Below are positions 20,990 through 28,498 of a stretch of 64,000 nt of DNA, one piece after another (within the stretch, counting starts at the first letter, position 1; each line of letters starts with the position of its first letter). A program made the position numbers and the translations under genes. Location of the stretch: NCBI GenBank assembly GCA_041946735.1, contig JBHGAY010000002.1, positions 96,001 to 160,000 of the forward strand, given 5' to 3'. The notes under the pieces were generated by a model. It had not been told where the DNA came from and did no database searches. It saw nothing but the letters and a program-made list of their open reading frames with translations. This DNA is from Candidatus Eiseniibacteriota bacterium (GTDB lineage: Bacteria > Eisenbacteria > RBG-16-71-46 > CAIMUX01 > VGJL01).

Positions 20990-22951
20990 ATGGATGCGAC
21001 GTATCGGATTTCGATCCCCGTTCTCTATGGCATCGAGAACTGGGGCAGCGGTTACTTCGACGTCAACGCGGCCGGCCACCTGATGGTGAAGCCGTTCCGC
21101 TCGGGCCCCGGCGTCGACCTCTTCCAGGTCGTCGAGGAGCTGCGCAAACGCCGCTGTCCGACGCCCGTCCTGCTGCGCTTCCCTCAGGTGCTGGAGACGC
21201 AGATCCGTCATCTCCACCAGGCGTTCCAGAGCGCGATCACCGAGTTCCAGTACGGAGCCCGCTACCAGGGCGTGTTCCCGATGAAGGTCAACCACCGGCG
21301 AGACGTCGTGGAGGAGCTTCTTCGCGTCGGCAGCCGCTATGACTTCGGCATCGAGGTCGGCTCGAAGGCGGAGCTGTACATCGCCCTTTCGATCCCCCAG
21401 CCGGAGGACAGCCTGCTGATCTGCAACGGCTTCAAGGACGACTCGTTCATCGAGATGGCGTTCTGGGGACTGAAGACCGGCAAGCGCGTCGTGATCGTGA
21501 TCGAGCAGGTGCGTGAGATGTACGCCATCTTGAAGCGGATCGAGGAGACCGGGCTGGTCCCGACGCTCGGCCTGCGCGGGCGCCTCTACACGCGGGGCAG
21601 CGGCAAGTGGGAGGAGTCGGGAGGAGAGACGTCGAAGTTCGGGCTCTCGACCGTCGAGATGATCGACTGCCTGCGGATCCTCCAGGGGCGGGGACTCGAA
21701 GGGGCCCTCAAGATGCTCCACTTCCACATCGGCAGCCAGATCACCGACATCCGGAGGATCAAGGCGGCGGTGAAGGAGGCGAGCCGCGTCTACTCGAAGA
21801 TCCGGAAGATGAAGGTCCCGGTCGAGTACCTGAACGTCGGAGGCGGCCTCGGGGTCGACTACGACGGGTCGAAGACGCCCTCCGACTCGAGCGCGAACTA
21901 CACGGTGCAGGAGTTCGCGAACGACGTCGTCTACACGATCCGCGAGATCTGCGACGCGGAGGACGTGCCGGTGCCGACGATCGTCTCGGAGAGCGGGCGC
22001 GCGGTCACGGTCTATCACTCGATGCTGATCGTTTCCGCCGAGAACCGCTCGGACGCGAGCACGCTCACGCGCAACGAGATGATCAGCGCCGAGTCGGACA
22101 ACCAGGTTTTGCGTGAGCTGTTCGAAATCGCCCGCGACATCAGCGTGAAGAACTTCCGCGAGTACTACCACGACGCGCTGCAGCAGCGGGAGGAGCTGTT
22201 CACCCTCTTCGATCTCGGCTACATCGACCTGCTCGAGCGCGGGCGCGGCGAGGCTCTCTTCGAGGAGATCTGCACACGCGCGCTACGCTTCGCGAAGCAA
22301 ACGAACTACGTGAGCGACGAGTTCGACCTGCTCGAGAAGGCGCTCCGGAAGAAGTACGTCGCCAACTTCTCCGTCTTCCAGTCGGTCCCCGACTCGTGGA
22401 GCATCGGGCAGCTCTTTCCGGTCCTCCCGATCCACCGCCTGAACGAGTTCCCGACCGAGAACGGCATCCTGGTCGACCTCACCTGCGATTCCGACGGACA
22501 GATCGACAGTTTCGTCGACGTGAAGGACATCAAGGAGATCCTGGAGCTGCACCCGACGGTCAACGGCGGCCCGTACTACATCGCGATCACGCTTCTCGGC
22601 GCCTATCAGGACGTGATGGGGGACTTCCACAACCTGTTCGGATCGGTCAACGAGGCGCACGTCGTCGTCGACGAAAACGGGCGCCATCACATCAGGAAGA
22701 TCCTTCGGGGGAACTCGATCGAGGAGATGGCGCGGATCGCGGGCTTCGAGATCGAGGATCTGCAGAAGGAGTTCTCGTTCCGGATCGCGACCGGCGTGCG
22801 TCAGGGCCGCATGAGCGAAGCCGAGGGGGCGAGCCTGCTCGAGGCCTACCGGACGCGCGCCAGGGAATCGACCTATCTGAGCCCGTATCCACCAGCGGCC
22901 GAACAGCCGGCGGCCCCTTCGAACGGGAACTTCCGGCAGGCTGAGGCGTAG
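20990..22951 (+). CDS. speA: Biosynthetic arginine decarboxylase
   Basis: YGIENWGSGYF, GVFPMKVN, EVGSKAEL, HFHIGSQI, NVGGGLGVDYDG, DLTCDSDG, GAYQDVMGDFHNLFG. Confidence 0.95.
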   Translation: MDATYRISIPVLYGIENWGSGYFDVNAAGHLMVKPFRSGPGVDLFQVVEELRKRRCPTPVLLRFPQVLETQIRHLHQAFQSAITEFQYGARYQGVFPMKVNHRRDVVEELLRVGSRYDFGIEVGSKAELYIALSIPQPEDSLLICNGFKDDSFIEMAFWGLKTGKRVVIVIEQVREMYAILKRIEETGLVPTLGLRGRLYTRGSGKWEESGGETSKFGLSTVEMIDCLRILQGRGLEGALKMLHFHIGSQITDIRRIKAAVKEASRVYSKIRKMKVPVEYLNVGGGLGVDYDGSKTPSDSSANYTVQEFANDVVYTIREICDAEDVPVPTIVSESGRAVTVYHSMLIVSAENRSDASTLTRNEMISAESDNQVLRELFEIARDISVKNFREYYHDALQQREELFTLFDLGYIDLLERGRGEALFEEICTRALRFAKQTNYVSDEFDLLEKALRKKYVANFSVFQSVPDSWSIGQLFPVLPIHRLNEFPTENGILVDLTCDSDGQIDSFVDVKDIKEILELHPTVNGGPYYIAITLLGAYQDVMGDFHNLFGSVNEAHVVVDENGRHHIRKILRGNSIEEMARIAGFEIEDLQKEFSFRIATGVRQGRMSEAEGASLLEAYRTRARESTYLSPYPPAAEQPAAPSNGNFRQAEA

Positions 22952-22980
22952 AGGGAGCGTATCGACCTCTCGCTGCAGGG

Positions 22981-23020
22981 GCGGGGCGCTGCTTCCACCA
23001 GAGCGGCGCCCCGCTCTTTT
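22981..23020 (+). terminator. Intrinsic terminator of speA
   Basis: GCGGGGCGCTGCT-loop-AGCGGCGCCCCGC followed by TCTTTT. Confidence 0.75.
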
Positions 23021-23045
23021 CGTCTCCGGCCTGAGTCAGACCTGG

Positions 23046-23450
23046 TCAGAGGATCTGGCGCTCCGCCCAGCGGCCGAGATACGGGATCCGGTACCAGCGT
23101 CCCTGATGGGCTTGCCAGAGCAGGTAGATCCAGAGGACGAACAATCCCACCCGGAAGACGTAGAGGAGAGTCCCGTAGAGGAATCCCACGAACGGGAAGA
23201 AGGTGAGCAGCCACAGCGCGAACCAGACGAGGATCGCGACCGCCGTGGCGGCGATCGACTGGAGGCAGTGGAACTGCACGAACCGGTCCTCGCGCTTCCA
23301 GACGAGAAGGACCACGCCCGAAAATCCGGCGAGGGCATAGGCGAGCGCTGCATGCAGCCGCGAGGAGGGCAGCAGATCGAGCGAGGCGCCTCGCCCGCGC
23401 TCCCCCCCTTCCAGAACGTTCAGAGGATCCGCTCCCCGATCCGGTCCCAT
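23046..23450 (-). CDS. DUF4870-like small membrane protein
   Basis: AALAYAL, EDRFVQFHCLQSI, three TM segments, YRIPYLG; start uncertain. Confidence 0.8.
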   Translation of the reverse strand: MGPDRGADPLNVLEGGERGRGASLDLLPSSRLHAALAYALAGFSGVVLLVWKREDRFVQFHCLQSIAATAVAILVWFALWLLTFFPFVGFLYGTLLYVFRVGLFVLWIYLLWQAHQGRWYRIPYLGRWAERQIL

Positions 23451-24121
23451 CGTATCCGCCTCCAGACCGACTTGGCGTCGTTCGGCTCGAGCGACCAGTA
23501 GACCGCCATCGCCTTCCCTATCACGAGGCGGCGGTCGAGGAAACCCCAGACGCGCGAGTCGGAGCTGTTGTCGCGGTTGTCCCCGAGCATGAACAGGTGG
23601 TTCGCGGGGACCCGCACCGGACCGTAGTCGTCGAACGCCGCGGCGTGGCGCGCCGGGTCGATCTTACCCCCCGGCGGCAGGCTCACCCGCTTCCCGTCCA
23701 CGTAGAGGACCTTGTCGCGGATCGTCACCATCTGCCCGCCCACCGCTACGCAGCGCTTGATGAAGGTGGCTCCGTCCTCGTTCGGCGAGCGGAAGATCAG
23801 AATCTCGCCCGCGCGCGGCTCGCGAAGCGCCGGAGTACGGAGCCCGATCAGCGGCAACCGCGTGCCGTAGAGGAACTTGTTCGCGACGACGCGATCCCCG
23901 GGAAGGATCGTCTCCTCCATCGAGCCCGATGGGATCTTGAACGCCTCGACGACCGAGACGCGGATGAGCAGCGCCAAACCGACGGCCAGCAGGACGGTCC
24001 GGACGTACGGGAGGGCGAGGTGGTTCGCGGAGCGCCGGATCGGACGGGGGAGGAGGTTAGGATCCGAAGCAGGGTCTTCAGCTGGGAACGAAGCGGGAAA
24101 GAGTGGTGAACGACTCGACAT
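23420..24121 (-). CDS. lepB: Signal peptidase I
   Basis: IPSGSMEETILPGD (Ser), FIKRCVA (Lys), MLGDNRDNSSDSRVWG. Confidence 0.95.
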   Translation of the reverse strand: MSSRSPLFPASFPAEDPASDPNLLPRPIRRSANHLALPYVRTVLLAVGLALLIRVSVVEAFKIPSGSMEETILPGDRVVANKFLYGTRLPLIGLRTPALREPRAGEILIFRSPNEDGATFIKRCVAVGGQMVTIRDKVLYVDGKRVSLPPGGKIDPARHAAAFDDYGPVRVPANHLFMLGDNRDNSSDSRVWGFLDRRLVIGKAMAVYWSLEPNDAKSVWRRIRWDRIGERIL

Positions 24122-24127
24122 GACACC

Positions 24128-24136
24128 AAGTTAGCA
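24128..24136 (-). promoter_or_regulatory. Extended -10 promoter (TGcTAACTT) for a probably leaderless lepB mRNA
   Basis: TGnTAnnnT lies 6 nt before the lepB ATG; no SD sequence present. Confidence 0.45.
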
Positions 24137-24158
24137 TGAACCGGACGAAGCAAGGGGG

Positions 24159-24464
24159 AGATCGTTCGGGACTGCTGCGCCGGCCACGGGGCGAACAGGA
24201 AGAGAGCCGCCGGAATCACTCCAGCGACTCTCTTCGGAGGTTCGGCCGCTTGCCCCAGGTTCGGTCTCCGGAACCCATCTAGCCACGCCGTGGGTCAACG
24301 ATGAATTCCGGCGACCGAAGCATCTGCAGGTTCGCAGCCAGAATCGGGGATCGGGGGCCCGCCGGTCACGGAAGCAACCTTCGGTTCCGGCATTCGCCGG
24401 CATCCGGATTGCGCTTCTGCCGGGGTTGGGAAACAGTCCGTACCCAGCGAGCGTCCCGATCTGC
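24159..24464 (-). ncRNA. Candidate structured non-coding RNA (~305 nt), family unknown
   Basis: Long terminal stem (24438-24459 with 24166-24189), internal 16-bp and ~20-bp hairpins with G-U pairs valid only on the minus strand, no credible ORF, 5' end at the predicted sigma54 +1. Confidence 0.6.
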
Positions 24465-24474
24465 CGCTCCTATG

Positions 24475-24490
24475 AGCAGCCGGCATGCCA
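24475..24490 (-). promoter_or_regulatory. Sigma54 (-24/-12) promoter TGGCATGCCGGCTGCT
   Basis: GG and GC dinucleotides at the canonical spacing; close match to TGGCACG-N4-TTGCW. Confidence 0.6.
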
Positions 24491-24670
24491 GAACGGGTTG
24501 AACTCCCCGAAGGTTGTTAACTCTATTGCGGATCAAGAGGATAGGAGGTCGTCGCCGCCGCTCGAGCGCGCGAAGGTCGAGGAGGGCTCGCGATGTCGGA
24601 GGCTGGCGCGGTTCCCGGCGGGCGACGCCGCGCGCCCTCCGCCTGTAAACGGTTGTCCTGACAAGGCTTG

Positions 24671-24695
24671 GTGGTGGTTCCACCGGTACCACCAC
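24671..24695. promoter_or_regulatory. Palindrome GTGGTGGT-N9-ACCACCAC, putative enhancer-binding-protein site
   Basis: Perfect 8-bp inverted repeat ~210-230 bp upstream of the sigma54 start. Confidence 0.4.
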
Positions 24696-24762
24696 TTCGG
24701 CACCGGTGGTCGCAACTTCACTCACTCCCTTTCAGGAAAGAGGAACGCGATTCGCGTGGCGC

Positions 24763-24791
24763 AAAGAAAAGCCCCCGGACGACCGGGGGCT
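24763..24791 (-). terminator. Intrinsic terminator downstream of the outer-membrane protein gene
   Basis: Stem AGCCCCCGG/CCGGGGGCT followed on the minus strand by TTTTCTTT. Confidence 0.8.
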
Positions 24792-24858
24792 CGTTCGAGC
24801 GCGGATTGCCGGACCCGCGGGCGTCGCGAGCGGACCCGCGGCGACCCGGCGGCGCCTG

Positions 24859-26334
24859 TCAGAGGCTCAGACCGGCGGTCAGCCTCAGCATTGCCACGCG
24901 GCGGTCGACATCGACGACCGTGGACTGCGGGTTGATGAAGGGATCGCCGGGCGACTCGTAATAGAACTTCCTCAGCTTGTAGTCGACGATCTCGTAGGCC
25001 ACGTCATAGCGAAGATTGCCCGTCTCGAATCCGAGACCGAACGTGAAGGAGTCGGTGTCGATGTCGCCTCCCGCCCACTGGTCCGGATCCGGGCCGCCGT
25101 TGAGCTTCGCGACGGACAACGGTCCTCTGTGATATCCGATCCGCAGGGGAAGGTCGATTTGCTTGAACCGCAGCCAACGTCCCTCGGCTCCAATGTGGAA
25201 GCTCGTGACGTCGCGAAGCGGAAGCGACGGGTTCGATTCCATCCCCAGGAAATCCTCCCGGTACTCGATCTTCGTCTCCGACCAGTTCTGGCGGTTCACC
25301 TCGACCGCCACCCGCACCTGTGGGATAGGCTGGAACCAGCCGCCGATCGACAGGAGCGCCGGGACGTCCATGTCGTAGCCCGCGATCCTCCCGAAGATGC
25401 GCTGCTGCGGAGCGCCGGGAGCACTGAGAACGAGGTAGTCCAGCCGGCCGCCGGTCACCTCCACCGTGTAGCCGGGCGTGAACCGCACGCCGATCCCGCC
25501 GAAGTTCGGGCGCCGCGCCTGGATGCCCAGGTCGGCCGAGATGCCTCGATAGCGATAGCGCGTCTTCAGGTATCCGCCCGCCGAGTTCGCGCCTCCGGTC
25601 GCGACGATCGACTCGATCTTCGAGCTGAGGCGGCCGGTCAGGTAGTTCAAGTTCGCCCCGACCGACACCACATCGGGGATCAACTGCGCGGCGGCGGAGG
25701 CGGAGGCCGCGTCGACGCCTCCCTCTTCCTTGCCATCGACCGCGAGAGTCACCGGGAAGGCGAGCCCTTCGCCGAAGACAAGATCCGAGACGATCTCCTC
25801 CGGATAGGACGTGTCGAGGTAGCGGCGGAAGCTGATCGCGCCGGCGACCGGACGCCCGAGCAGCTCGCCCGAGATCCCCGCGCCGAGCATGTTGCCCCGG
25901 AGGTTCGACTTCAGATTGACGTCGTACCGCTGCACGGCGAGCAGCGGCGAGTTGGGAATATTGAACGTGTCGGGATATCCCGAGGTCGAGCCCGAGGATC
26001 GGATCCAGCGAAGGTCGCCGGTCACGTTCGGGCGCTGGAGCCATCCCAGCCCGGCCGGGTTCCACGAGATCGCCTGCAGATCGGTGGCCTCGCCGACGTA
26101 GGCGCCACCCATTCCATGACCCACCGCGCTCGCGCGCACTCCGGTCATGTCGAGCGGCCGGAAGACGAGCGACGGCTGGAGCGTCTCCAGCGTGGCGATC
26201 CCGATCGTGCCGAGGTCGGTCTCGACCAACTGTGCGGAGACCGGCGAGGGCATGAGAGCCGCGGCGCAGGCGACGAGAGCGAGCGCGAAGATGGCCGGGG
26301 CTGCGAGACGACGAACGACACCCACTCCTCTCAT
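24859..26334 (-). CDS. FadL/OmpP1-like outer-membrane beta-barrel
   Basis: Signal peptide; GVRASAVGHGMGGAYVG...AISWNPAGL N-terminal motif; amphipathic strands; start MRGVGVV at 26334. Confidence 0.75.
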   Translation of the reverse strand: MRGVGVVRRLAAPAIFALALVACAAALMPSPVSAQLVETDLGTIGIATLETLQPSLVFRPLDMTGVRASAVGHGMGGAYVGEATDLQAISWNPAGLGWLQRPNVTGDLRWIRSSGSTSGYPDTFNIPNSPLLAVQRYDVNLKSNLRGNMLGAGISGELLGRPVAGAISFRRYLDTSYPEEIVSDLVFGEGLAFPVTLAVDGKEEGGVDAASASAAAQLIPDVVSVGANLNYLTGRLSSKIESIVATGGANSAGGYLKTRYRYRGISADLGIQARRPNFGGIGVRFTPGYTVEVTGGRLDYLVLSAPGAPQQRIFGRIAGYDMDVPALLSIGGWFQPIPQVRVAVEVNRQNWSETKIEYREDFLGMESNPSLPLRDVTSFHIGAEGRWLRFKQIDLPLRIGYHRGPLSVAKLNGGPDPDQWAGGDIDTDSFTFGLGFETGNLRYDVAYEIVDYKLRKFYYESPGDPFINPQSTVVDVDRRVAMLRLTAGLSL

Positions 26335-26798
26335 GACCTCTCCCCCAGGAGCAGCGTCACGATGACGGCCCCTGTCGTCCAGAAGCTCGCCGAGCGAGCG
26401 GTCCGCGCGATGTCGAAACGCACCTGGTCCACGTTGGTGATGTCGCTCTTCAGCAGCATCTTGTCGGGAGCGGGAGGCTCGAGCGAGACGCGGGCGTTCT
26501 CGAGACGCGAGACCTGCTTCTCGACCCCGTCCGCGTCGCGGATCGGGACGAGTCCGGTGAGGACGATCTTCTGGTCGTCGACCTCCTTCACCTTGCCTTC
26601 CGAGACGACCCGGGGCTCGCGGAGCACGACGTTCTGGCCCGGAGCGATCCGGCCCTCGATCTGCTCTCCGGTCCTGAAGGTCAACACGACGCGCTGATGC
26701 TCGTCGTACGTCAGATCCTCGACCGGAACGCGCTTCGCGCAGCCGAGCGCAAGCAGGAAACATCCGATCATGGCCAAGAGCCACGGGACTCGTTTCAT
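26331..26798 (-). CDS. Lipoprotein of unknown function
   Basis: MKRVPWLLAMIGCFLLALGC lipobox; stop overlaps the barrel start (ATGA). Confidence 0.75.
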   Translation of the reverse strand: MKRVPWLLAMIGCFLLALGCAKRVPVEDLTYDEHQRVVLTFRTGEQIEGRIAPGQNVVLREPRVVSEGKVKEVDDQKIVLTGLVPIRDADGVEKQVSRLENARVSLEPPAPDKMLLKSDITNVDQVRFDIARTARSASFWTTGAVIVTLLLGERS

Positions 26799-26940
26799 TG
26801 CGTCTCTCCGAGGTCGGCAGGTGACGTCCGGGAAACGAGGGGGGTCTGACGACCTTGCAGCATCCCCAACAGCCACGCCTCCAACCACACCTTGTGCCCG
26901 GATCCCCCGGCGGATCCGAAGCCGGTCATCCAACGCCGCG

Positions 26941-26969
26941 ACTCTAGGAGAACGGGGGGCGAACGTCAA
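26941..26969 (-). promoter_or_regulatory. Sigma70-type promoter TTGACG-N17-TAGAGT
   Basis: Near-consensus hexamers at 17-bp spacing, upstream of the lipoprotein-barrel operon. Confidence 0.6.
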
Positions 26970-26993
26970 GGGGGAGGCCCGGCGGCCTCCCCC
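26970..26993 (-). terminator. Hairpin downstream of glnA (GGGGGAGGCC-N4-GGCCTCCCCC)
   Basis: Perfect 10-bp stem, short U tract only. Confidence 0.5.
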
Positions 26994-27148
26994 GCAAGCT
27001 CAAATCCCGAAAGGCACCTACGGCGCTGCGGCTGCTTCCCTCCGGCTCCCCTGTCTGGCCTCCGGCCGCCGATCCTCCGGCCGCCGATCCGCGGCGCCTG
27101 GATCCGCAGCGCCTGCTGGATCCGCAGCGCCTGCTGGCCCCGCAGTCC

Positions 27149-28498
27149 CTAGAGGAGGGGCAGGTACCGCTCGATCTCGTATCCGGTCACCTGCACGCGA
27201 TAGCGGTCCCACTCGATCTTCTTGTTCTCGAGGAACTTCGTGAAGACGTGCTCCCCCAGCGCCTCCGCGAGCAGCTCGCTCTCCTCGGCGATCTGGATGG
27301 CGGCGAGGAGCGATCCCGGGAGCGTGTCGATCCCCCGGGAAAGCTTCTCGGAGGCGGTCATGTGGAAGATGTCCTCCTCGACGGGCGGCGCAAGATCGTA
27401 GCCCTCCTGGATCCCCTTCAGTCCCGCCGCGAGCATCACCGAGAAGGCGAGGTACGGGTTGCAGGCGGGATCGGGGCAGCGGTACTCGATCCGCGTCGCC
27501 TTCTCCTTGCCGGGCTTGTACATCGGCACCCGCACGAGGGCCGAGCGGTTGCGTTGGCCCCAGGCGACGTAGACGGGAGCTTCGAAGCCGGGAACGAGGC
27601 GCTTGTAGGAGTTGATCCACTGATTGGTGACCACGCACATCTCGCGGGCGTGCCGCATCAACCCCGCCATGAATGCGCGACCCACCTTCGAGAGGTGGTG
27701 CGGATCGGAGGCATCGAAGAACGCGTTCTGCTCCCCCCGGAAGAGCGACTGGTGCACATGCATGCCGCTGCCGTTCTCGCCGAAGAGCGGCTTCGGCATG
27801 AACGTCGCGTAGGTGCCGTTCGCACGCGCGATCCACTTGACCACGTAGCGGTAGGTGATCGTCGCATCCGCCATGAGCATCGCTTCCTGGTACTTCAGGT
27901 CGATCTCGTGCTGGCTTGGCGCGACCTCGTGATGCCCCACCTCGACGCCGATCCCCATCGCCTGCAGCGCCTGGATCGTCTTGTGGCGCAGCTCGGTCCC
28001 GAGGTCGTCCGGCGTCTGGTCGAAGTAGCCGGCGATGTCCATGGTCACCGGCTCGCTGGGACTCTTCAGGTAGAAGTACTCCAGCTCGGGACCGACGTTG
28101 AAGCTGTAGCCGAGGTCGCGGGCGCGCTGCAGGTTCCTCCGGAGGACGTGACGCGGATCGCCGACGTAGGGCTGCCCGTTGGGATTCAGGATGTCGCACA
28201 TCATCCGCGCGTGCAGCTCGCCGTCGATGCGCCAGGGCAGCAACTGGAAGGTGGAGAGATCGGGGACGGCGATCAGGTCCGACTCGTAGATCCTCGCGAA
28301 CCCCTCGACCGAGGAGCCGTCGAATCCGAGCCCTTCGTCGAGCGCCTCCTCGAGCTGCATGGGGGTGATGCCGAACGACTTCAGCATCCCGAGGATGTCC
28401 ACGAACCAGAGATTGATGATCTTGATGCCGCGCTCCTCGATGAAGCGCATCACGTTCTGGCGGGTGAGGTTGGTGGGGTTCACGCTTTCCTGGGCCAT
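27149..28498 (-). CDS. glnA: Glutamine synthetase type I (alpha-like)
   Basis: FDGSSVEGF, GPELEYF, HHEVAPSQHEI, ATFMPKPLFGENGSGMHVHQSL, NSYKRLVPGFEAP, RIEYRCPDPACNPYLA. Confidence 0.97.
   Translation of the reverse strand: MAQESVNPTNLTRQNVMRFIEERGIKIINLWFVDILGMLKSFGITPMQLEEALDEGLGFDGSSVEGFARIYESDLIAVPDLSTFQLLPWRIDGELHARMMCDILNPNGQPYVGDPRHVLRRNLQRARDLGYSFNVGPELEYFYLKSPSEPVTMDIAGYFDQTPDDLGTELRHKTIQALQAMGIGVEVGHHEVAPSQHEIDLKYQEAMLMADATITYRYVVKWIARANGTYATFMPKPLFGENGSGMHVHQSLFRGEQNAFFDASDPHHLSKVGRAFMAGLMRHAREMCVVTNQWINSYKRLVPGFEAPVYVAWGQRNRSALVRVPMYKPGKEKATRIEYRCPDPACNPYLAFSVMLAAGLKGIQEGYDLAPPVEEDIFHMTASEKLSRGIDTLPGSLLAAIQIAEESELLAEALGEHVFTKFLENKKIEWDRYRVQVTGYEIERYLPLL

Follow-up and report, generated by a model that had tools for sequence, protein, structure and literature searches.

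A candidate sigma-54-dependent structured RNA gene found in part of the phylum Candidatus Eisenbacteria

A stretch of 64,000 nucleotides from the genome of an uncultured Candidatus Eisenbacteria soil bacterium (contig JBHGAY010000002.1, positions 96,001 to 160,000; hereafter the window) very probably carries, on its minus strand between about 24466 and 24192, a new, stand-alone, structured RNA gene that depends on sigma-54, a reading to which we assign a probability of about 0.9. Comparison among relatives shows that the RNA is found in part of the phylum, and it outlines a self-contained gene in which a predicted enhancer palindrome about 200 nt upstream is followed by a putative sigma-54 promoter, an RNA of two domains and a terminator-like hairpin. 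With about 36 copies, strong covariation and a defined promoter and enhancer, these loci constitute a well-supported new RNA family in a phylum that has no cultured member and no described RNAs, and the RNA is large and intricate for a bacterial small RNA (sRNA), having two closed domains and an invariant junction. Among the papers listed by a full-text search of the literature on Eisenbacteria, none was an account of RNAs (the motif itself is not searchable as text), and the literature on sigma-54-dependent sRNAs, searched by name, yielded nothing of this kind in Eisenbacteria.

Coordinates are positions in the window, and the RNA gene is read on the minus strand. Along that strand lie, in order, the terminator of an outer-membrane barrel gene (24792-24769), the palindrome (24691-24675), the promoter (24490-24476), about 275 nt without a credible gene and, within these, a 16-bp GC hairpin (24235-24199). 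The parts of the gene are the following:

24192..24466, minus strand: whole RNA gene, about 275 nt, both ends predicted
24476..24490, minus strand: sigma-54 promoter TGGCATGCCGGCTGC (GG at -24, GC at -12), in the same place in 27/27 genomic and 9/9 metagenomic copies
24675..24691, minus strand: probable enhancer (upstream activating sequence), palindrome TGGTACCGGTGGAACCA, predicted, about 201 nt upstream of the promoter TGG
24345..24466, minus strand: 5' domain, in which the long stem P1 (24466-24444 with 24365-24345) closes a three-way junction of P2, P3 and P4; from RNAduplex and covariation
24417..24436, minus strand: P3 hairpin CUGUUUCCCAACCCCGGCAG with the C-rich loop, invariant in 27/27 sequences, the proposed effector surface
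24244..24339, minus strand: 3' domain, in which P5 (GGCUGC/GCGGCC) closes P6 and the long hairpin P7 (24319-24260)
24199..24235, minus strand: terminator-like 16-bp GC hairpin with the U-poor tail CUGUUCGCC; in relatives, this position is taken by a hairpin that differs in sequence
24166..24189, minus strand: 3' arm of a closing stem proposed earlier, downstream of the terminator-like hairpin, unconserved and outside the conserved RNA

Distribution, folding and identity of the RNA

The RNA is represented by 27 copies in 26 Candidatus Eisenbacteria genomes of five families (f1, f2, f4, f8 and f15) and by nine metagenome contigs. The genomic set unites the genomes found by a covariance model with three found by BLAST (G001, G027 and G031), and one genome, G015, is counted with two copies (L046 and L063, on contigs C7 and C8), each with promoter and palindrome. 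A BLAST search with 461 nt against 41 related genomes matched 14, the host included, with 5/5 in the host's family f1, 8/13 in f2, 0/15 in f3 and 0/1 in each of seven other families; DNA identity over 24462-24244 was 83-90% in all five other genera of f1. When 151 sampled genomes of the phylum were searched with a covariance model built on the whole RNA (R1), 23 were positive (f1 4/4, f2 10/10, f4 1/1, f8 2/2, f15 5/5), with no match in f3 (0/12), f11 (0/60), f13 (0/32), f10 (0/7), f14 (0/6), f16 (0/3), f12 (0/2), f18 (0/2) and four families of one genome each (0/1). With a model restricted to the 5' domain (R2), the same 23 genomes were recovered together with two borderline hits (G081 and G020), which were rejected as coding-like sequence without a promoter. 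In f3, a homologue of the barrel gene is present in 5/5 genomes checked, yet no promoter or core follows within about 1.4 kb; since the 12 f3 genomes also gave no true model match, the RNA was not found in the f3 genomes searched.

While the Eisenbacteria genomes were searched with models, other collections were covered by one exact-pattern scan. Among one genome each of 185,579 species, the invariant core occurs as an exact pattern in 14 places only, all titled Candidatus Eisenbacteria or “uncultured bacterium.” A metagenome scan with an 18-letter pattern gave at least 119 matches, and nine of the 80 loci fetched are true members; the remaining fetched loci are chance matches to the pattern, and two of the metagenome loci (L160 and L173, which have one and the same sequence) gave borderline matches to R2 but were discarded for lack of a promoter.

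An earlier sequence-only reading had proposed, at this place, an undescribed, stand-alone, enhancer-controlled RNA of about 305 nt on the minus strand. The sequence folds far better than chance: the 306 nt then delimited reach -155.1 kcal/mol on the minus strand, against -128.3 ± 4.8 for shuffled sequences (z -5.60; 0/100 shuffles equal), and the 275-nt version (24466-24192) reaches -147.3 kcal/mol (z -6.28; 0/200 shuffles equal). The length has to be revised to about 275 nt (24466 to about 24192). An unconstrained single-sequence fold of 24466-24192 arrives at the consensus architecture, which runs from 5' to 3' through the 5' domain, a short linker, the 3' domain, a spacer and the terminator-like hairpin. 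In a model alignment of the 22 full-length sequences, 93.2% of 1193 cells hold standard pairs, as opposed to 31.8-44.0% when the partners are slid by 1-3 columns, and two-sided changes are found in 38 of 55 pairs, with 0/500 shuffles reaching any of five measures. Such changes affect every one of the 21 pairs in P1 and P2, and the seven inner-hairpin pairs all covary; helices 5-7 are 89-99% paired, with two-sided changes in 14/23 pairs, while P3 (CUG...CAG) and P5 are nearly invariant and hence uninformative either way. P1 was recovered by RNAduplex in 15/15 sequences with differing letters (-25 to -38 kcal/mol).

The 5' domain is the only part alignable across all five families. Its P3 loop reads UUUCCCAACCCCGG, and CCAACCCCGGCAG is invariant in 27/27 sequences while the adjacent helices change completely; altogether 21 columns are invariant in the 27 sequences, concentrated at the P3 loop and the P3/P4 junction. 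Family f15 keeps the 5' domain, followed by a variable purine-rich linker and, instead of the 3' domain of the other families, by a highly conserved one of about 105 nt, which is closed by GGCUCCC/GGGGAGCC, displays CCUCCC in a hairpin loop and is succeeded by a U run.

Two of the helices drawn in the sequence-only reading, the 16-bp hairpin at 24235-24199 and the hairpin of about 20 bp at 24319-24260, are present in the conserved structure, and its argument for selection on RNA is upheld by covarying pairs that include G-U pairs valid on the minus strand only. Two others are not conserved. The closing stem (24459-24438 with 24189-24166) has a z below -2 in only 2/20 loci, and the conserved partner of its 5' arm is 24363-24345, just 3' of the junction. 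This stem is possible in the host (-39.3 versus -34.2 kcal/mol for P1), where 1/45 control windows at the locus pairs as well (-41.2 kcal/mol); being in the chance range of the control windows and standing out at so few loci, it was ruled out as a conserved or switching helix. The stem GGGGC.AGCGG/CTGTT.GCCCC is unconserved, and GCGGCC pairs instead with GGCUGC (24339-24334) in 22/22 sequences.

At the 3' end, the hairpin of relatives differs in sequence and mostly has a U-rich tail. Folds of the tails, as we read them, show a hairpin of 12-19 bp and a U-containing tail after the core in 15 of 20 informative loci, three being ambiguous, and in two f8 copies the 3' domain is immediately followed by U6. 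The window's own terminator-like hairpin was not called by a terminator scan because it is followed by too few T.

Contigs from sequencing libraries hint at expression in relatives. A soil metatranscriptome (X9) contains a 231-nt contig (depth 8.9), 208 nt of which fall on 24244-24449, and a second contig of 156 nt lying on 24355-24451, and a run labelled as cDNA (X11) contains a 156-nt contig ending at 24449. Together, these three RNA-type contigs from two libraries span 24244-24451 and all stop at 24449-24451; the parts of the stretch left uncovered in the four runs carry no evidential weight. A DNA-type run (X7) likewise holds a 151-nt piece of the RNA gene.

Some of this evidence is open to objections that weigh against an expressed, structured RNA. 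The alignment used for counting pairs was fitted to the model and thereby favors structure, which the slid controls and the single-sequence fold offset in part. Contigs from relatives give neither strand, level nor true ends and are therefore a weak hint of expression, the more so as DNA can be present in RNA libraries. In addition, because the tail is U-poor and the terminator was not called, read-through into the downstream gene lepB is possible in the window.

Two readings would deny the novelty or the RNA nature of the element, and both are very improbable. According to one, the element would be conserved DNA, serving as a protein-binding region or encoding a small protein, that is foldable merely through its GC-richness. 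Chance duplexes are indeed strong in such DNA, as the control windows illustrate, and the plus strand of the 306 nt also scores (z -2.73). However, 38 of the 55 pairs are kept through two-sided changes, minus-strand-only G-U pairs among them, the orientation toward the sigma-54 promoter is constant in 36/36 copies, and RNA-library contigs match the element. A small-protein gene was ruled out, as no open frame is common to all 22 full-length homologues in a crude test anchored at the invariant core, in agreement with the earlier claim that no credible open reading frame covers the element.

According to the other, the element would be a divergent copy of a housekeeping or catalogued RNA, for which only weak matches below the Rfam cut-offs speak. 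A permissive scan of 23900-24900 gave nine weak hits, the best within the element being ncS01 (24.4 bits, cut-off 58) and Deinococcus_Y_RNA (17 bits, cut-off 80, over 24346-24461). Judged by covariance-model scores at or above each family's gathering cut-off, Rfam 15 gave 0 hits in the 64-kb window and in 20 homologous loci, which bears out the description of the RNA as new. Divergent forms of 6S RNA, ribonuclease P (RNase P) RNA, signal recognition particle (SRP) RNA and transfer-messenger RNA (tmRNA), already set aside in the sequence-only reading, were ruled out since the host's genes for 6S (70.9 bits, contig C25), RNase P (291.8), SRP (65.8) and tmRNA (181.9) are all elsewhere; moreover, 6S RNA forms one long rod interrupted by a central bubble, unlike the two separately closed domains seen here. 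A Y RNA was ruled out on the same low model score and on the absence of any match to a TROVE/Ro (Rsr) protein in the host genome, which is 94.8% complete (a control search was positive in Deinococcus and Bacteroides). By inspection, a Csr/Rsm-type sponge does not fit either: the invariant unpaired letters are C-rich (CCAACCCC) without GGA repeats, and the fold is non-repetitive.

Promoter, enhancer and activator

The form TGGCAY-N5-YTGC stands directly upstream of the RNA in all 27 genomic copies (one has TGGTAC and one ends in TGA) and in all nine metagenomic ones, and may be compared with the RpoN consensus TGGCAC-N5-TTGCW given in the available excerpts of PMC4253122. The -24/-12 match at 24490-24476 places the predicted +1 near 24464, at the 5' end of the element, where the sequence-only reading had put the sigma-54 start. 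Its proposal of enhancer control is likewise supported: 20 of the 26 loci with enough upstream DNA, in five families, have a TGG-N11-CCA palindrome 180-203 nt before the promoter TGG, and at least one such site falls within -340 to -120 in 23/26, against a background of 0.14 per 220 nt elsewhere in the loci. The three loci without a site have near-variants by eye. The host genome has 47 strict sigma-54-like sites, and apart from the promoter of the RNA just one of them is accompanied by such a palindrome at most 400 nt upstream. Four of the five f15 genomes contain the pattern TGGRTA-N4-GTAYCCA a single time, at the RNA gene (in the fifth, the contig ends just upstream of the promoter), and the reversed control pattern is found 0 times; as the pattern was derived from these same sites, its informative part is the absence of further ones. 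We infer that a dedicated enhancer-binding protein may bind the palindrome. In the clearest copy (L041), GCAC and GTGC are spaced 5 nt apart; the corresponding spacing of NtrC sites is 7 nt.

Two observations concern the palindrome. Many relatives have an AT-rich stretch after it amid GC-rich DNA, situated at about 24600-24670 in the window, where it is less AT-rich; it might be a DNA-bending site of the integration host factor (IHF) type. The second-best genomic palindrome match in the host, outside the window (C27:20875-20891, TGGCACCATCGGAACCA on the minus strand), is intergenic and precedes a gene with a signal-peptide-like start; it was treated as a chance match and not as a second enhancer, there being no recognizable -24/-12 element nearby.

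Family f15 offers a candidate for the enhancer-binding protein. In 4/5 genomes and 5/5 metagenome contigs of this family, the RNA adjoins a gene for a giant protein, which in G055 (L094:2116-7512) has 1798 amino acids and combines Pkinase, AAA_16 (STAND NTPase), TPR, GAF, Sigma54_activat and HTH_8 domains. Even taken by itself, this fusion is an unusual architecture for a sensor-activator, and its gene is preceded by its own conserved TTGATT...TACAA block. The giant protein is probably the activator of the RNA gene in f15, where a single enhancer per genome beside such a STAND-kinase activator would provide a clean, testable sensor-to-RNA circuit.

No activator gene adjoins the RNA in f1, f2, f4 or f8, the window included, and for the window's own family the activator is presumably encoded elsewhere in the genome. 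Searches of the host genome have not supplied it, which counts against the proposed scheme: there is no full-length homologue of the f15 protein (tblastn gave generic AAA+/HTH matches of 35-47%), a search of it with the f15 HTH alone returned weak, ambiguous best hits, and none of its approximately 30 candidate sigma-54 activators could be singled out, each Eisenbacteria genome having about 20-40. Outside the window, host contig C67 bears a gene for a GAF-type sigma-54 activator (about 137915-140197) followed by two sigma-54 promoter matches 520 nt apart (138435 and 137915).

The kind of gene described here is already known from Pxr, NrsZ and CrcZ, which exemplify a functional class and not a homologous family. 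The GlmY and Qrr RNAs are sigma-54-dependent sRNAs of the same kind. As described in the excerpts available, the sRNA Pxr of Myxococcus xanthus has a stand-alone gene, for which a sigma-54 promoter is predicted and which possesses an enhancer-binding site; this gene adjoins the activator gene nla19, and the sRNA forms several stem-loops (PMC5568312). NrsZ and CrcZ of Pseudomonas are intergenic sRNA genes found via the RpoN consensus, CrcZ having an RpoN promoter and NrsZ lying beside ntrC and being absent in rpoN and ntrC mutants (PMC4253122). As far as these excerpts go, the Eisenbacteria RNA resembles Pxr in being a stand-alone gene with a sigma-54 promoter and an enhancer site and, in f15, in adjoining an activator gene; it differs in having a core of about 225 nt and two closed domains, as opposed to 108 nt and three stem-loops, in preceding the activator gene, and this in a single family out of five, and in the nature of the f15 activator, a giant kinase/STAND/TPR/GAF fusion and not a response regulator. 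There is no likeness to Pxr in sequence or Rfam model. With NrsZ and CrcZ it shares, on the same partial basis, the RpoN-consensus promoter, and in f1 it has glnA two genes upstream; on the other hand, there is no homology to either, and NrsZ is processed into repeated short stem-loop units, in contrast to one non-repetitive fold. CrcZ acts through repeated A-rich motifs. The Eisenbacteria RNA is larger and more intricately folded than these examples, and it mostly does not lie beside an activator gene.

Neighboring genes and possible function

The two genes that flank the RNA in the window are as follows:

24859..26784, minus strand: FadL-type outer-membrane barrel gene (weak Toluene_X/FadL hit), upstream neighbor with its own terminator at 24792-24769
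23420..24121, minus strand: lepB, signal peptidase I (Peptidase_S26, E 2.6e-43), downstream neighbor

In f1, f2 and f4, 19 of the 20 copies of the RNA come immediately after a barrel-gene homologue. What follows the RNA in these 20 copies is far from constant: a co-oriented DUF4870 gene comes after it in 12, speA, convergent and within the locus in 15, is directly next in six, and lepB is directly next in one, that of the window, to which a metagenome contig (L146) adds a further case. Other neighbors are found in f8, in f15 and at the second copy of G015, which stands after an SPFH/Band_7 gene instead of the barrel gene. The link to lepB implied by the sequence-only reading is therefore abandoned, and with it a lepB leader, which synteny rules out; by the same counts, together with the terminator-like hairpin that most copies possess, the view of a stand-alone RNA is supported.

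As to function, we propose that the RNA would be a trans-acting regulator, possibly one that acts by base pairing through its C-rich loop, a mechanism to which we give somewhat less than even odds. An enhancer-binding protein would switch the RNA gene on in response to a signal, and the RNA would then act in trans. The C-rich loop (UCCCAACCCC), invariant and exposed at the three-way junction, would pair with G-rich ribosome-binding regions of target mRNAs and thereby block or alter their translation. Many copies have a further stretch, CCUCC-like or CUUCCCC, toward the 3' end that might assist pairing (tails of the CUUCCC(C) type are seen in six f2 copies), and stability and shape would come from the long stem P1, the 3' domain and the terminator hairpin. 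GGAGG-type ribosome-binding sites are common in the host genome. The RsaE/RoxS-type sRNAs of Firmicutes, of about 100 nt and not sigma-54-dependent, pair with ribosome-binding sites through exposed C-rich loops (UCCC, CCCC); they have no homology to the Eisenbacteria RNA, and the likeness of exposed C-rich loop motifs and of the proposed mechanism would be one of analogy.

Base pairing has evidence against it. A genome-wide scan for the loop complement (GGGGTTGGG), made without gene annotation and amid abundant GC-rich spurious open reading frames, gave 37 sites, none at a convincing translation start. The invariant 13-nt stretch, the junction and the conserved fold of about 225 nt exceed what a seed-pairing sRNA needs, and invariance of this extent fits a protein- or ligand-binding RNA nearly as well.

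The same features lend themselves to other explanations. Instead of pairing with mRNA, the RNA could bind a protein, as decoy or scaffold, or a small ligand, or could catalyze a reaction, the loop and junction serving as a tertiary or binding site as in large orphan structured RNAs; this is rather doubtful but would account for the clustering of the 21 invariant columns in the P3 loop and at the junction of P3 and P4 amid helices that all covary, for a fold in two closed domains of several helices each (about 120 and 95 nt), and for the lack of a convincing mRNA target. It is countered by the fact that no protein gene accompanies the RNA in all five families, that Ro/TROVE is missing from the host and the GGA repeats of Csr/Rsm-type RNAs from the invariant letters, and that f15 keeps the 5' domain and swaps the 3' domain, from which it follows that no single rigid tertiary fold of the whole RNA is conserved. 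A more specific form, in which a giant STAND-type sensor-activator, one genomic enhancer and one output would make up a dedicated module whose output is a large tertiary-structured RNA working by protein or ligand binding or by catalysis, appears unlikely; if true, it would represent a protein-sensor-to-structured-RNA pathway without a described counterpart. A cis-acting leader, riboswitch-like or attenuating, of the downstream gene (lepB/DUF4870 in the window, the activator gene in f15) is improbable. The co-oriented DUF4870 gene, the U-poor tail of the window's terminator and the position of the f15 activator gene, next on the same strand in 9/10 cases, would suit such a leader. Nevertheless, no co-oriented downstream gene is conserved, speA being convergent where it is next and the neighbors in f8 and at the second G015 copy being unrelated, so that the downstream gene varies between families while the RNA stays constant; and in f15 the RNA ends with a closing stem and a U run 100-400 nt before the activator gene, which has its TTGATT...TACAA block upstream.

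Minor observations

The gene order of f1 (window 20990-28498; also L136 and L203) is glnA, barrel operon, RNA, DUF4870 and convergent speA (arginine decarboxylase); in the window and in L146, lepB is inserted between the RNA and DUF4870. At one f3 locus (L099, G010:C20:32665-34509), the match to the barrel protein reads through two TGA codons, which may point to two genes, to a disrupted gene or to a misassembly.

In f2, the invariant loop has the form UAUCCCAACCCC, which corresponds to the codons Tyr-Pro-Asn-Pro, the A being absent from the window copy, and the tail domains of type IX secretion bear a YPNP motif; the likeness is probably a coincidence. A weak false match (L122) is coding-like sequence with TATCCCAACCC, and L123 has the core CCCAACCCC. 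A Guanidine-II (mini-ykkC) hit at 24771-24818 on the plus strand, scoring 21.8 bits against a cut-off of 32, falls on the terminator hairpin of the barrel gene, read on the opposite strand, and is probably a chance match.

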